Of a stretch of 64,000 nt of DNA, positions 912-61,391 are shown one piece after another. The translations under genes were made by a program, and so were the position numbers. The DNA is from Octopus vulgaris (lineage: Eukaryota). Numbering within the stretch: position 1 is the stretch's first letter; every line of letters starts with the position of its first letter. The DNA lies in assembly GCA_951406725.2 (NCBI GenBank), contig OX597835.1, positions 10,168,001 to 10,232,000 on the forward strand, written 5' to 3'. A model generated the notes under the pieces. That model saw only the letters and a list, made by a program, of their open reading frames with translations, was not told where the DNA came from and did no database searches.

Positions 912-2184
912 TTACTCTTTTACTCTTTTACTCTTTTACTTGTTTCAGTCATTTGACTGCGGCCATGCTGGAGCACCGCCTTTAGTCGAGCAAATCGACC
1001 CCGGAACTTATTCTTTGTAAGCCCAGTACTTATTCTATCGGTCTCTTTTGCCGAACCGCTAAGTGACGGGGACGTAAACACACCAGCATCGGTTGTCAGG
1101 CAATGCTAGGGGGACAAACACAGACACACAAACACACACACACATACATATATATATATATATATATATATATATAACGGGAAGCTTTATGAAAATAAAC
1201 AAAAGACGAAGGCAGGTGGAAAACAAACGAACAATTGTATTAGTATGGCGCTCAGGAAATATAAATAAAACAAGTCTTTAACGTTTCGAGCCTACGCTCT
1301 TCAACAGAAAGATACACAGAGAGAGAAAAACACAGAAAGAAGGAGAGAAAAAAAATGCGTGCAGTAGCTAACGAATCAACATGGCGATCTGATTTCGGCC
1401 AGAGGTCAAAGATCAAACATGAGACGCGAGAGCGAAATAAGGGGAGATAATAGGGTTGATAAAAGGGTTGAGGGACCAGCTAAAAGTGCGTGGGAGGGGT
1501 CTGGATGTGTGTATGTATAGGGTTGGTGTATGTATTAGTATGTATAAGGGTGTGTGTGTGTGTGTGTGTGTGTGTGTGTGTATTAGTGCGTAAGATTGGT
1601 CTGGACGTGCGTATGTATGGGGTTGGTGTATGTATTAGTATGTATTAGTATGTATTAGTACGTATTGGTATGTATAGTGTGTGTGTGTGTGTGAGAGAGA
1701 GTATAAGTGCGTATGCGGGGTCTGGACGTGTGTATGTATAGGGTTGGTGCAAGTATTAGTATGTACTGGTATGTATTAGTACGTATTAGTATGTATTAGT
1801 TGGTGTGTGTATTAGTATGGCACATCATATGTGATGTGATGTGTAAAGTCATGTGGTGTAGTGAGGAGAAGAGGGGGAGGGGGAGAAGAGGGGGGAGAGA
1901 AGGCGAGGGGGAGGAGAAGGGGGAAGAGGAGAGGAGGGGGAGAAGGAAGGGGAGGAGGGGGATGAAGGAGGAAAGAGGGAGAGGGGGAGAGAGGGAGTGG
2001 GGGAGCATATATATATATATACGACAGGCTTCTTTCAGTTTCCGTCTACCAAATCCACTCACAAGGCATTGGTCGACCCGGGGCTATAGCAGAAGACACT
2101 TGCCCAAGATGCCACGCAGTGGGACTGAACCCGGAACCATGTGGTTGGTTAGCAAGCTACTTACCACACAGCCACTCCCGCGCC
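912..2184 (-). mobile_element. tRNA-derived SINE (family A: GGCGC..GAGTGGCTGTGTGG head, internal (TA)n, (GTAAAAGA)n tail), interrupted by a ~830-bp insert in its (TA)n tract
   Basis: Head at 2184->2020 and tail at ~1140->912 are near-identical to the intact copy at 33009-33475; pol III A/B-box-like TGGCTGTGTGG / GGTTCAGTCCC. Confidence 0.85.
1275..1312 (-). ncRNA. minimal type I hammerhead-like motif (core variant CUGUUGA)
   Basis: Minus strand reads TCTTT CTGTTGA A GAGC GTAG GCTC GAAA CG TT AAAGA: helix I TCTTT/AAAGA, helix II GAGC/GCTC, palindromic ACGT in place of helix III; A6 replaced by U. Confidence 0.55.
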
Positions 2185-2413
2185 TAAACTATTAGTGAGA
2201 AAAATTTCACGGTGGACAGAACAAAGTGTACGGGATCTACGAGTCAAATAGCTCAGTCGTGTTCAGTCCACAGAGAGATACATAAAAGGACAAGATGCAA
2301 GTTTAAATTTATCATTTGCACATTATGCAATTTTAGTTAAATTTTGTAATTCTTGTGTATAACTTTGTGTCTATCTGACATCTAAAACTACTCTTGAGCA
2401 TAATTTAGTATTG

Positions 2414-2582
2414 TGAGTGTGTGTGTGTGTGTGTGTGTGTGTGTGTGTGTGTGTGTGTGTGTGTGTGTGTGTGTGTGTGTGTGTGTGTGTGTGTGTGTGT
2501 GTGTGTGTGTGTGTGTGTGTGTGTGTGTGTGTGTGTGTGTGTGTGTGTGTGTGTGTGTGTGTGTGTGTGTGTGTGTGTGTGT
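2414..2582. repeat. (GT)n microsatellite
   Basis: Near-pure GT dinucleotide run of ~170 bp. Confidence 0.98.
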
Positions 2583-3248
2583 AATATCTATATTTGCCAT
2601 TTTTCATAAACAATTGTCTGTCTAACTGGTTTTGATGTAAAATGTTCTATATGCGGCTAAAAATTAAAATTTATGGACAACCTCAGACGCTGCTCTTCCG
2701 TTAGATAAGTCGCATCGCCATCAAATCGGTGTTTTATATGAGAAATATCAGAAATATCGACTATCTGTTGTGGAGAATTACTTAAATAAACCTTTTGATA
2801 TGTGTCCATTTTGTGTGGTTTTGTTAATTCATTTAATCTGTACAAACAGTTCTAGAAGGGTCTCTACTTATTTTAAACTTTATACAAACGTCTGTTTAGC
2901 TAGACGAGGGAGTTATGATGGGGAGAACAAGAAAGTGAAGACGATGAAGATGAAGATGATGGAGGGAAAGAAGAAGGAGGAGGAGGAGAAGAAGAAGAAG
3001 AAGAAGAAGAAGAAGAAGAAGAAGAAGAAGAAGAAGAAGAAGGGTAAATGAATCATCAGGACATGAGGAATGAGGTTTCGACAGGATTATCCGTTCCTGA
3101 CAAATGTTTGAGTGTGTGTCGCCTCAACAAATGTAAAGATAGAAAGATAGAGACTGAGAGACAGAGAGAAGAAAATATATACATATATATATAATAATAA
3201 TAATAATAATAATAATAATAATAATAATAATAATAATAATAATAATAA

Positions 3249-58071: not shown

Positions 58072-59382
58072 ACTTTTTCAATTCCTGAGCGTTATACTAA
58101 TACATCTGTTTGTTTTCTACACCACCTGTCTTCGTCTTTTGTTGTTGTTTTTTTCGTGAACTCCCCCTATATATATATATAAAACCCCACTAGAATGGAA
58201 GAAAGCGCTAACATATGATATATGATCTAAGTTATACGATGTATAAAAACATGTAATATACAAATAAATATCTGTAAATATAAAACCATCCGAATTTCAT
58301 CTAATATTTCATTTCTTCTAATATATGTATATGTTTATTTATATATATATATATATATAAGCATATACATAGTTTCTTAAATGCTCGTGCATCAAACTCT
58401 TAGTCTCATGCATACATACATATTTTTATAGATCGTAATTTCTATTGCTGTAAACATAGAAATTCAAAGAAATTTAAAAGAAAACAAAACAACTGGGAGT
58501 GGTACATTCGTATCTAACCCAGATCTTTTTACCCAGGCAATAGACGACTTGTTAATGTTTACATTTTCACCTTATAGTAAAAAACGGAAACCCTAACACA
58601 GTTATAAATAAACTGATCAATTAATTTCACAATCGTTTTTTTGTTTTTTTGTTTTTTTGTTGTTTTTTTTTGTCTGCTGAAAATTCACATTTTTGGCATT
58701 TTGGGCTTCTTTTCAATTTGATCCTGCTTTGTATTTTAAACTTAGCTGGTTGCTGTTTGAAAGCAATTCATGTTATGTTTTTGTCCTACATTCGTAAATA
58801 TAAACAAAGGTATGTGTTTGGGTGTGCTCAAGTGTGCTCAGGTGTGCAGGTATACATTCCAGAATGTCGATTTATTGAACAACTTCCCCAGGCTTCCAGA
58901 TCAATTGTAACTAATTCACAAATGCCGTTATGCCATGTGCATTTGTGTGTGTATATATATATATATATATATATATATATATATATATATATATTATATT
59001 AATAGGAGCACTCCGTCGATTGCGACGATGAGGGTCCCAGCTGATACGATCAACGGAACAGCTTGCTCGTGATGTTAACGTGCAAGTGGCTGAGCACTCC
59101 ACAGATACGTGTACCCTTAACGTAGTTCTCGAGGAGATTCAGCGTGACACACAGAATGTGACAAGGCTGGTCCTTTGAAATACAAGAGAAACAGGAAGAA
59201 AGTTGTGGTGAAAGAGTACAGCAGGGTTCACCACCACCCCCTGCCGGGAGCTTTAGGTGTTTTCGCTCAATAAACACTCACAATGCCCGGTTTCGGAATC
59301 GAAACCGCGATCCTCCGACCGCGAGTCCGCTGCCCAAACCACTGGGCCATTGCGCCTCCACATATTATATATTATATTATAT

Positions 59383-61088
59383 TATATATTAAAAGGCAAG
59401 TTGTCTATCTGTGTGTGTATGTAGTGTGAACCACTTCTACTCTTACAATTTTCAACCAAATTTCACCAAATTTGACATGAGAGCTCTCTTTAACTTAGGA
59501 CATTCTTTCTTATAAATTTTTCCTCGAAATTCCATGTCCCTAACATAAATAGATAACTCTCAATTCGCCTAGGATTTGGATTGAGCCAGTGACAAAATGT
59601 GATACACACCCAGCTGGAAAAGATCAATACTTTACTTTGTCAGCTGTGGTGAGCTCTTATCGACTGCTTGCACAGTACTGCCAGCAGTATTCATTTGCAA
59701 GTTACGATTTGCTTCCGTTTTCGCATGAGCGCTCTTTTTCATATAATTATTCCAATTTAAACTAACCACTTCAAAACTCTTACCCAAAATTAAAAATCTT
59801 TAATTCTGTCTGTTTGATTAACATTTTTGCCAACTACATTTTACTGGGGTTTTTTTGGGTGCCACACATTCACCGCATTTTCCTTAGGACTTTTTCTATT
59901 GCGTAAACTGATAATTTTCCACCATGCCTCGATGCAAAAGATCCAATATAGGTCAGCAAACAAATGCTGCGAAGAAAAGTAAACGTATGCGTGCAAATGA
60001 ATCTGCCGAGGACTCCGCCAGGATGAACTCTCTCAATGTACTTAGGATGGCTTCAGTGTGAAAAAGGGAAAGTGAGGAGCAGCGTTGTGATCGGTCAGCA
60101 CATATTGCTGCGGAACGAGCCGTCCAGAGCAACGAGCAACGTTCAGCACGCCGAACAAGAAATGCTTCCTCTACTGCTGCTGCACGATCTTCAGAGACTC
60201 CAGCACAATTTGCAGATCGACTTACAAGAGATGCTTCCTCAAGTGCTGCTGCACAACGTGCAATTCGACATACAAGAGATGCCTCCTCATCTGCTGTTGC
60301 ACGAGCTCCAGAGACTGCAGCACAACGTGCAGATCAACTTACAAGAGACGCTTCCTCAACTGCTGTTGCATGAGCTGCAGAGACTGCAGCACAACGCGGA
60401 GATCGACTTACAAGAGATGCTTCGTCAACTGTTCATGCACGAGCTCCAGAGACTGCAGCACAATGCACAGATCGACTCACAAGAGATGCTTGCAGCAACT
60501 GCTGCTGCACACGCTACGGAGACTACAGGAGAAAGACAACAACGGATGTTGCTCTATGCGGCAAACAGGAAAACATCAGGTAACCATACCCTTGTCCCCT
60601 TATTTAGTTCATTAGCGTAATCTTCACAGTGTGCTCTCCGTAAAGTGCGCCCCAATCTTGAGGTAGATACTACACTTTTTATCTTTTTTGCACAGGTCAC
60701 ACGTCAAATTTTTTGTTCAGATAATGTTGTACGTGCTACCCCTCGAAACAGCTGGTAAGCATACTCCTTCTCTTTATGCCATATCTTTAGGCTCAACCTT
60801 TCCATCTGCTAAACAGCGCATGTCAGCAGTTATGTGGTAAGGAAAAATAAACTCAATTTACTGCCAGTTTTTTACAGATCGACCTACCGTTCCAATGGAA
60901 CACAATGACAATGGTGTGTTCGTATGACTCTGCATGTTCACTATTGCACTAAATAAATCAAACAATGCAGGGAACGTCTGCCATTAGGATTTCTTTTATT
61001 CAGTTCAGAGGTGCATTCATGAATGGTCTAATAACCAAAGAGGCATACTTAACAAACAGCTCCGGGCAACGCCGGGTACGCCTGCTAG
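59383..61088 (+). mobile_element. internally deleted Helitron retaining a RepHel-like N-terminal coding segment
   Basis: 3' hairpin CCGGGCAACGCCGG followed by CTAG|T at 61085-61089; 5' boundary approximate. Confidence 0.65.
59924..60579 (+). pseudogene. Helitron N-terminal pseudo-ORF with 23-aa STPR-like repeats
   Basis: MPRCKRSNIGQQTNAAKKSKRMRANES..., then 69-bp repeats encoding ETAAQRADRLTRDASSTAVARAP; two in-frame TGA stops, a late frameshift, ends at a possible donor CAG|GTAACC. Confidence 0.65.
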
Positions 61089-61310
61089 TATATATATATA
61101 GAGAGAGAGAGCAACAAAAAATATTTTGACACAAATGAAAATTAAATGTTGAAGTGAAACTAACGGTTTTTGTGTGTTCTTGAATGGCTTACACATATCT
61201 TCCATGTTGCAATTGTATATATATATATATATACATTATCACTATGGACTCCGTGTGGGCAGTCATCTAAAAGTTTTTGTTCGTCATGATGCTGACATAA
61301 GTTCCTTGTC

Positions 61311-61391
61311 TTTCCTGATGAGAAGGCGGCATAATGCACCCTTTATTCCTTCGGAATTAAGAATATGCAGTCTTCGAAACATATGTCGAGA
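61311..61391 (+). ncRNA. type I hammerhead motif
   Basis: TTTC CTGATGA GAAGGC...GTCTTC GAAA CATATG TC^GAGA; canonical core, palindromic ACATATGT helix III, GUC site after 61387. Confidence 0.72.

Follow-up and report, generated by a model that had tools for sequence, protein, structure and literature searches.

Minimal hammerhead ribozymes in a 64-kb stretch of the Octopus vulgaris genome as likely remnants of Penelope-like retrotransposons

Results

The window—by which we mean the whole 64-kb stretch of Octopus vulgaris DNA analyzed here—contains 18 hammerhead motifs, listed in Table 1 and named below by their first position. Sixteen of them confirm entries of an initial annotation, which had listed 17 when 21283-21544 is counted as two; the other two, at 9297 (−) and 42130 (−), are decayed motifs absent from that list. 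As the initial annotation had proposed, many unrelated families are represented, the 18 motifs falling into ~14 of them. Judged by their sequence, these are real minimal type I hammerheads, with the core, the NUH site, three helices and an open-ended helix I, 12 of the 18 being variant or decayed. Where complete arrangements had been claimed, the sites now divide into (i) six that pass a strict type I descriptor (7114+, 17666+, 26934−, 55100−, 55228+, and 61311+); (ii) four in which the CUGANGA/GAAA core is intact but a pair is broken in helix I, II, or III (18992+, 21300−, 21434+, and 40216−); and (iii) the rejected site 11996 (+), where a CUGAAGA is followed by neither GAAA nor a helix II partner before an (AT)n tract. 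All six reported core variants are present, the third on the minus strand, given as 20765, being located at 20763: U occupies position 6 at 1275 (−) and 58036 (+) and, together with a helix I mismatch, at 11010 (−); a U3-A8 pair is found at 20763 (−); and C occupies position 4 at 26582 (+) and 33915 (+). Helix III is, as described before, mostly a short palindrome, perfect at most sites and imperfect at 7114, 26934, 21434, and 40216.

Table 1. Hammerhead motifs and associated element parts in the window
Feature	Positions	Strand	Remarks
Family A hammerhead, U6	1275..1312	−	3' end of Neptune-type PLE remnant, upstream to ~1800; ends near (TA)n
Hammerhead, long helix II	7114..7185	+	Single diverged relative, in locus L100; no link to an ORF seen
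Decayed hammerhead, C at position 4, weak helix II	9297..9339	−	
Family A hammerhead, U6, helix I mismatch	11009..11046	−	
Family B fragment	17666..17780	+	Intact hammerhead 17666-17711 and part of 3' end; 5' truncation at helix I
Family B inverted partial arm with tail	18733..18838	−	Head-to-head with adjoining unit
Family B tRNA-derived head	18842..18912	+	A-box and B-box-like motifs; decayed in this copy
Family B hammerhead and 3' end without tail	18992..19090	+	Hammerhead 18992-19037; first helix II pair broken
pLTR remnant, U3-A8 hammerhead	20658..20946	−	Hammerhead 20763-20804
Hammerhead, long helix II, helix I mismatch	21300..21392	−	One of head-to-head pair
Decayed hammerhead	21434..21527	+	Second of head-to-head pair with 21300
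Family C hammerhead, C at position 4	26582..26616	+	Relatives end at (TA)n ~107 nt downstream
Intact hammerhead, hairpin helix III	26934..26988	−	Relatives in loci L012 and L040
Hammerhead, C at position 4	33915..33955	+	Centre of inverted repeat, arms ~190 nt
Decayed hammerhead, long helix II	40216..40302	−	
Decayed hammerhead, 10-nt palindromic helix III	42130..42190	−	
pLTR remnant, intact hammerhead	54968..55186	−	Hammerhead 55100-55144
Intact hammerhead	55228..55291	+	3' flank has inverted copy at 54808-54949
Family A hammerhead, U6	58036..58071	+	
Intact hammerhead, long helix II	61311..61391	+	Helix covariation among 7 relatives

The shuffled controls suggested for these motifs bear them out: the six strict motifs compare with none in all 80 dinucleotide shuffles (40 global and 40 local, the latter in 500-nt blocks), and the 11 relaxed motifs with means of 0.12 and 0.2 and a maximum of 1 (25 + 25 shuffles). 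The supposition of a dense population in this genome also holds, at a background of ~2 strict motifs per 64 kb (by estimate roughly 90,000 genome-wide), above which the window is ~3-fold enriched. Covariation among genomic copies, the next expectation, is seen in the 61311 group, in which seven related sequences have 89% of cells paired and show compensatory change on both sides of 7 of 19 pairs; none of 500 shuffles was as high for cells paired or for the covariation score, and two of the five measures failed to beat the shuffles (96/500 and 308/500). Folds of the monomers are at most mildly better than those of shuffled sequence (z from −2.4 to +0.5), several minimum-energy folds not being hammerheads. 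The proposed comparison with the Rfam hammerhead models came out negative, with no match in the window at the gathering score and, in an E-value search, no hammerhead among the 150 of 250 matches listed, which were to miRNA models and driven by microsatellites. Microsatellites dominated the repeat search of the window as well.

Elsewhere in the genome, hammerheads of four families (A, B, 20763, and 55100; 7 of the 18 sites) lie downstream of ORFs of Penelope-like elements (PLEs) with reverse transcriptase (RT) and GIY-YIG domains, a position that directly demonstrates for them the PLE link previously surmised. In loci L019 and L123, the ends of GIY-YIG ORFs are followed by relatives of 20763 at distances of 648 and 674 nt, the ORF fragments being too short to show a Cx2-5CxxC linker. 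The 55100 remnant is 92-93% identical to a pLTR ~473 nt downstream of the GIY-YIG ORF end in L018, L023, and L024, and L004 adds a further link for this family; Pfam identifies RVT_1 plus GIY-YIG in the ORFs of L018 and L013, and the named relatives of the L018 protein are mostly bivalve proteins. Family A (1275, 11010, and 58036) has at least 5,057 genome copies and carries A6U, predicted to cripple cleavage, family-wide; in 4 of 23 long copies its hammerhead lies 830-1150 nt downstream of the ORF. For the remaining 10 of ~14 families (11 of 18 sites), no ORF link was found in the loci examined, which had 1.5-kb flanks, and family C, the only one searched on purpose, gave none in 23 copies with such flanks. 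No PLE ORF match occurs in the window itself, and the large ORF at 3249-6680, considered as a partner, encodes a non-LTR RT without GIY-YIG. An intact 781-aa PLE family has no hammerhead of its own by the descriptor used. Other traits of PLEs seen here are head-to-head inversions, a tail of 25-32 nt that may be absent, and 3' ends next to (TA)n, a tract that follows 11 of the 18 sites within 250 nt, compared with 22.6% of random positions (p=5e-4). In addition, an inverted 5'-truncated arm with an optional ~30-nt tail characterizes family B, an inverted pLTR being present in L018 too. We conclude, with a probability of roughly 85%, that the hammerheads of the four families represent the 3' ends of Penelope-like retrotransposons, as the others likely do too.

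Family B is arranged as ORF, tRNA-derived segment, and ribozyme, in this order. Among 30 loci picked by their GIY-YIG end (one of them the query locus), the head is present in 28 and the ribozyme in 20. Its copies, which are old and broken, have their 3' ends near 224-231 and 256, and no full-length element with an upstream pLTR was found, even by a search aimed at the 5' part. Genomic tRNA genes, taken from 30 loci, can be aligned with the head along its length, tRNA-Arg scoring best (z ~9-10 versus shuffles); an origin from tRNA-Thr was not supported, as a degenerate pattern matched nothing and Arg tRNAs scored best.

These features raise the question of whether the short family B copies are a true SINE, with Pol III starting at the head and the PLE protein copying the ~260-310 nt RNA in trans. 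In line with this, 22 of 30 head-anchored copies begin between −11 and +7 of the tRNA-like +1, only one reaching >26 nt upstream of it; 48 of 82 pooled arms, which are not independent, likewise begin at the head; exact 20-mers number 3,917 in the head versus 848 at 57 nt upstream; and some arms start at +1 even where the partner arm ends far off. However, the start of the head is spanned by a short palindrome, and fold-backs account for many of the junctions there, which offers an alternative cause of the 5' ends, while truncation is frequent everywhere, with 22 of 82 arms ending between +8 and +28, and the excess at the head is only ~5-fold. Moreover, ARAGORN found a tRNA in 0 of 16 loci and Rfam none in one locus, and fragmented RNA-seq reads, from an organism not shown to be the window's species, contain the sequence about equally in both directions, with no pile-up of starts or ends. 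The T4 run does not discriminate here, as it is missing from the unit and from the upstream ORF alike. On balance, we regard a SINE as possible but doubtful.

Discussion

Our data support an origin in which the hammerheads of four families sit in the 3' repeat (pLTR) of PLEs and the rest are likely the same kind of remnant. The earlier description of the sites as non-coding retroelements holds only in part, since the four families derive from the 3' ends of protein-coding PLEs, most of them truncated on the 5' side. Such remnants would be left by target-primed reverse transcription, presumably starting just downstream of the ribozyme and usually stopping early. According to the literature, both strands of AT-rich DNA are nicked by the PLE protein, which uses two internal sites to prime cDNA, and the PLE ribozyme cleaves weakly and depends on a dimer or on assistance from protein; the role of the hammerhead is an open question (PMC8557442, PMC11167929), and PMC11167929 reports that ribozyme mutants leave insertion in vitro unaffected. 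We infer that the template is mostly uncleaved RNA, in which case most dispersed copies would be dead passengers and catalysis would be unnecessary for copying. In family B, copies usually begin at the tRNA-derived pLTR segment, which most likely sets either the RNA start, as a Pol III promoter, or the fold-back point.

In agreement with the work of Cervera and De la Peña (2014; PMC4209133), the motifs share with the minimal hammerheads of metazoan PLEs (i) the type I fold with a short helix I and an extra base before helix II; (ii) a helix III that is minimal or palindromic; (iii) the presence in one genome of many unrelated families, chiefly as solo copies; and (iv) opposite-strand pairs and the U3-A8 variant. 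The load differs, with an estimated ~90,000 strict motifs here and ~2,000-9,000 per genome there, as counted by different descriptors, and the text consulted contains no mention that we found of family-wide A6U or U4C cores or of a tRNA-derived pLTR segment. Nor did the literature searched yield an earlier report of a tRNA-headed PLE pLTR or of family-wide A6U; the small PLE hammerhead variants of Lünse et al. may include some of those seen here. The Poseidon PLE of Anolis (PAc; PMC11167929) resembles family B in its RT plus GIY-YIG protein, its pLTR hammerhead, a pair of 3' ends between which a tail lies, a preference for AT-rich targets, and RNA-seq without ends at the cleavage site, but no tRNA-like head is reported in the text consulted, and family B, unlike PAc, consists of old, broken copies. 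Penelope/Poseidon and family B ORFs alike lack the CxxxxCxxC linker, whereas those of family A and 55100 share with Neptune-clade PLEs (PMC8557442) a Cx2-5CxxC linker before GIY-YIG, the motif from which alone we read the clade, as well as (TA)n-adjacent 3' ends.

Beyond PLEs, the Sm-alpha/Sj-alpha SINE-like repeats of Schistosoma (reviewed in PMC6765202) are, like family B, short repeats in which a hammerhead comes after a Pol III-type promoter. Yet they are tandem and liberated by cleavage, whereas family B is dispersed or head-to-head, retains the head 5' of a ribozyme that is left uncleaved, and physically belongs to a coding PLE. Capture of a small-RNA-derived Pol III promoter in a retroelement terminal repeat is also known from the TRIMp3 elements Helenus, Ajax, and Cassandra, which depend on LTR retrotransposons (PBS, PPT, TSD), while family B has PLE marks (PMC10886601).

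The initial annotation had pointed to non-LTR retrozymes, i.e., non-coding repeats in tandem whose dimers cleave themselves and which give circular RNAs; these have type I hammerheads related to pLTRs (PMC7229834; bioRxiv 10.64898/2026.07.22.740005), with a palindromic helix III as here, and are said to derive from pLTRs and to occur as solo monomers too (bioRxiv 10.64898/2026.07.22.740005). Tandem units and circular RNAs define them, however, and no motif overlaps a tandem array in the window (among the 150 of 190 arrays listed). Pairs are head-to-head instead, so that 21300 and 21434, being on opposite strands, cannot dimerize in one transcript; none of the 30 family B copies anchored by the tail starts at the cleavage site, and four families adjoin coding PLE ends. 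This origin is therefore disfavored for A, B, 20763, and 55100 and unlikely overall. For family B, the reads listed include no circular RNA joint at the cleavage site. The presence of family B sequence in RNA reads could point to regulatory ribozymes exapted by the host and kept at these loci, but the copies number in the thousands, many are decayed, and 64-68% of the reads examined continue into unrelated sequence, as expected of read-through, which makes exaptation highly improbable. Finally, chance matches in AT-rich, repeat-rich DNA, to which the incomplete site 11996 and the 0-2 matches per 400 kb shuffled in relaxed scans might be referred, are refuted for the motif set by the shuffles, the multicopy families, and the covariation, and chance may still account for a relaxed singleton or two.

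The probable PLE origin of the window's hammerheads extends to this genome what was already published for other animals, where many minimal hammerheads are PLE remnants, as described by Cervera and De la Peña. What the genome offers in addition is tens of thousands of copies, dozens of families, and core variants (A6U, U4C, and U3-A8) that are fixed family-wide; because whole families carry such natural variants, the role of cleavage in their spread becomes open to statistics and simple assays. We tentatively propose, while thinking it may well prove wrong, that a Poseidon-type PLE captured a tRNA-derived Pol III promoter and gave rise to a hammerhead-bearing SINE copied by the Penelope machinery rather than by a LINE and that, together with the A6U Neptune-type family of >5,000 copies, this would imply that ribozyme cleavage is dispensable for retrotransposition. 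If true, a tRNA SINE mobilized by Penelope would widen the known SINE-partner pairs, and the octopus genome would be a natural test of whether PLE ribozyme cleavage can be dispensed with.

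Results

The type I hammerhead motifs of the window are real and far more numerous than chance gives. A descriptor requiring CUGANGA, a helix II of at least 3 bp, GAAA, a short helix III, NUH, and a helix I of at least 3 bp matched 6 times in its strict and 11 times in its relaxed form, compared to no strict match in 80 dinucleotide shuffles and a relaxed mean of 0.12 to 0.2 (50 shuffles). One relaxed match, 22262(−), was taken as chance. A looser, palindrome-anchored scan of this AT-rich, microsatellite-abundant sequence recovered decayed or variant motifs at 18992, 21300, 21434, 40216, 11010, and 20763 and added 9297 and 42130; weak matches at 25308, 27039, 30862, and 59907 were discarded by eye. 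The total is 18 motifs in ∼14 families, and 16 of the 17 motifs listed in the initial annotation hold, the exception being 11996, which lacks its second half and was ruled out. An Rfam search of the window recovered none of the motifs at gathering score or among the 150 of 250 E-value rows listed.

Helix covariation, expected among copies, was seen for 61311 and its relatives (n = 7), with 89% of helix cells paired and both sides changed in 7 of 19 pairs; for these related sequences, pairing and covariation scores were reached by 0 of 500 shuffles and two other measures by 96 and 308. Among 47 distinct helix signatures from the sampled loci, helix I, where the descriptor itself requires pairing, takes all pair types; helix II is preceded by an extra base in 24 signatures, and helix III is palindromic in 22. 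The folding energies of the monomers do not stand out, as expected if the motifs need a dimer or a protein.

As background, forty 10-kb stretches (399.9 kb) taken at round-number positions of the genome (2.8 Gb, 227 contigs) yielded 13 strict and 21 relaxed matches (2.1 and 3.4 per 64 kb), and five shuffles of them yielded 0 to 1 and 0 to 2. The window, chosen for this very feature, lies ∼3-fold above background (Poisson p of 0.02 for strict and 0.0007 for relaxed matches). Extrapolation from the count of 13 gives a genome load of roughly 90,000 strict motifs (range, about 50,000 to 155,000).

The genome holds 6,136 GIY-YIG candidates (148 of 150 scored ones pass; 781-aa frames are frequent), two loci (L013 and L018) encode RVT_1 plus GIY-YIG, and the relatives of its Penelope-like element (PLE) proteins include mollusc ones. 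The suggested linkage of the motifs to GIY-YIG plus RT ORFs is present for four families. The stretch around 55100 is 92 to 93% identical to sequence that L018, L023, and L024 carry ∼473 nt past their ORF ends, and an inverted 5′ copy is present in L018 as well; core position 4 is C in these three loci and U in the window copy and in another locus, L004. In L019 and L123, the 20763 motif is found 648 and 674 nt beyond the ORF ends, and it retains its U3-A8 core in 4 of 4 other copies seen. For family A (1275, 11010, and 58036), 30 loci were examined; the motif is present in 23 long copies, and 4 of these place it 830 to 1,150 nt downstream of PLE ORF remnants. Family B (17666 and 18992) follows the GIY-YIG C terminus, with a tRNA-derived head in 28 and the ribozyme in 20 of 30 loci chosen by that ORF end; in longer loci, RT similarity continues upstream. 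Judged by the linker motif, a clade criterion from PMC8557442, families A and 55100 would be Neptune type and family B Poseidon type. No ORF link was seen in the sampled loci for 11 of the 18 window sites, and tblastn found no PLE ORF remnant in the window. A separate PLE family (L011 to L015 and L020 to L022) has many open 781-aa RT plus GIY-YIG frames, preceded by a further frame of up to 479 aa, and imperfect repeats make up its 3′ UTR; the type I descriptor found no hammerhead belonging to it.

Other PLE marks are also present. A (TA)n tract lies within 250 nt downstream at 11 of 18 motif sites, against 22.6% expected, and (TA)n marks the end of 21 of 23 copies of family C (26582), ∼107 nt downstream. 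Family B 3′ ends form two groups 25 to 32 nt apart, and an inverted arm precedes 19 of 30 head-anchored copies.

Features of the window other than intact hammerheads, with the family B copy and the 55100 stretch
Position	Strand	Feature
3249-6742	+	Open 1143-aa non-LTR RT frame (RVT_1, weak zf-RVT); (TAA)n before frame, poly-A at end; young in appearance; presumably R4/Dong-type clade
9666, 10758, 28935, 42917, 59296		tRNA-derived SINE heads with A and B boxes, different from the family B head
12580-12710		Short inverted repeat with a central CUGAAGA on each strand; descriptor found no valid hammerhead fold
18733-19090		Head-bearing family B copy
22734-23092		178-nt unit, present twice, with internal hairpin; GAAA plus palindrome resembling a hammerhead half, CUGANGA absent
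27551-28364		Minisatellite, 15-nt-based units
near 38700	−	3′ remnant resembling the 3249-6742 LINE
39571-40048		Minisatellite, 11-nt-based units
42300-42650		Long inverted repeat (arms 42412-42580), ∼90% like flanks of the 33915 hammerhead, without ribozyme
54968-55186		Stretch holding the 55100 motif

Discussion

Our data argue, with a probability of about 0.85, that the window motifs are terminal repeat (pLTR) remnants of many PLE families; of the two origins initially offered, PLEs are favoured and retrozymes are not supported. The core observation is known biology: PMC4209133 describes minimal hammerheads as truncated PLE ends, massive, heterogeneous, and mostly solo, and includes opposite-strand pairs and the U3-A8 variant. 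PMC13282606 gives octopus PLE families and many unclassified SINEs.

Family B is ordered as ORF end, ∼40 nt, head (∼75 nt), (TAA)n, about 55 nt, hammerhead, and an optional tail. The head aligns with genomic tRNA genes (Arg best; z of about 9 to 10); ARAGORN and Rfam called no tRNA in it, presumably because it is too decayed. Exact 20-mers number 3,917 in the head versus 848 at 57 nt upstream, and a 25-mer downstream of the ribozyme has 7,901 matches. When 30 copies were anchored at the head, the first base lay between −11 and +7 of the tRNA-like +1 in 22 of them, inward of this range in 3, and upstream of it in 5 (at most 62 nt); of 82 pooled arms, 48 start near +1, 22 start more inward, and 12 reach beyond it upstream. 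This pile-up would follow if the short copies were a SINE whose RNA is started by Pol III at the head, a reading we judge less likely than not; fold-back at a palindrome spanning the head start would explain the same pile-up, and truncation is frequent near the head. In raw RNA reads (three runs from an organism coded B, not shown to be the window's species), both directions of family B are about equal, depth steps are in line with copy number, and molecules have no common start or end point, a coverage that fits read-through. The (TAA)n tract is often broken by LINE-like insertions (L135, L034, L211, L213, and L214), which separate heads from ribozymes.

Returning to pLTR copying, PMC11167929 reports that the Poseidon protein targets AT-rich DNA, nicking both strands, that reverse transcription starts at two internal sites bounding the tail, and that the ribozyme cleaves only with protein, ribozyme mutants inserting normally. 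Head-to-head arms with and without the tail are consistent with such two-strand nicking and two internal start sites. None of 30 tail-anchored family B copies starts at the cleavage site, which suggests that the RNA copied is uncleaved.

Core variants are fixed in other families. Position 6 of family A is U in 99 of the first 100 matches listed of 5,057 exact matches to a pattern that permitted A, and A6 occurs in 0 of 23 copies chosen by upstream sequence, ORF-linked ones among them. For family C, 29 copies were chosen by likeness to the window copy, and all 23 that were scored have U4C. According to PMC3088659, A6C brings hammerhead activity to less than 0.1 per min, and U4C, though weak, is tolerated in a viroid; by analogy, a weak or dead ribozyme is predicted for the A6U core of family A.

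In the literature covered, largely titles and abstracts, we found no description of PLE hammerheads from cephalopods, of a pLTR with a tRNA-derived segment, of a SINE mobilised by Penelope, or of A6U in a natural hammerhead. Relative to this literature, the new features are a very dense host, a tRNA-headed pLTR, and an A6U core across the whole of family A.
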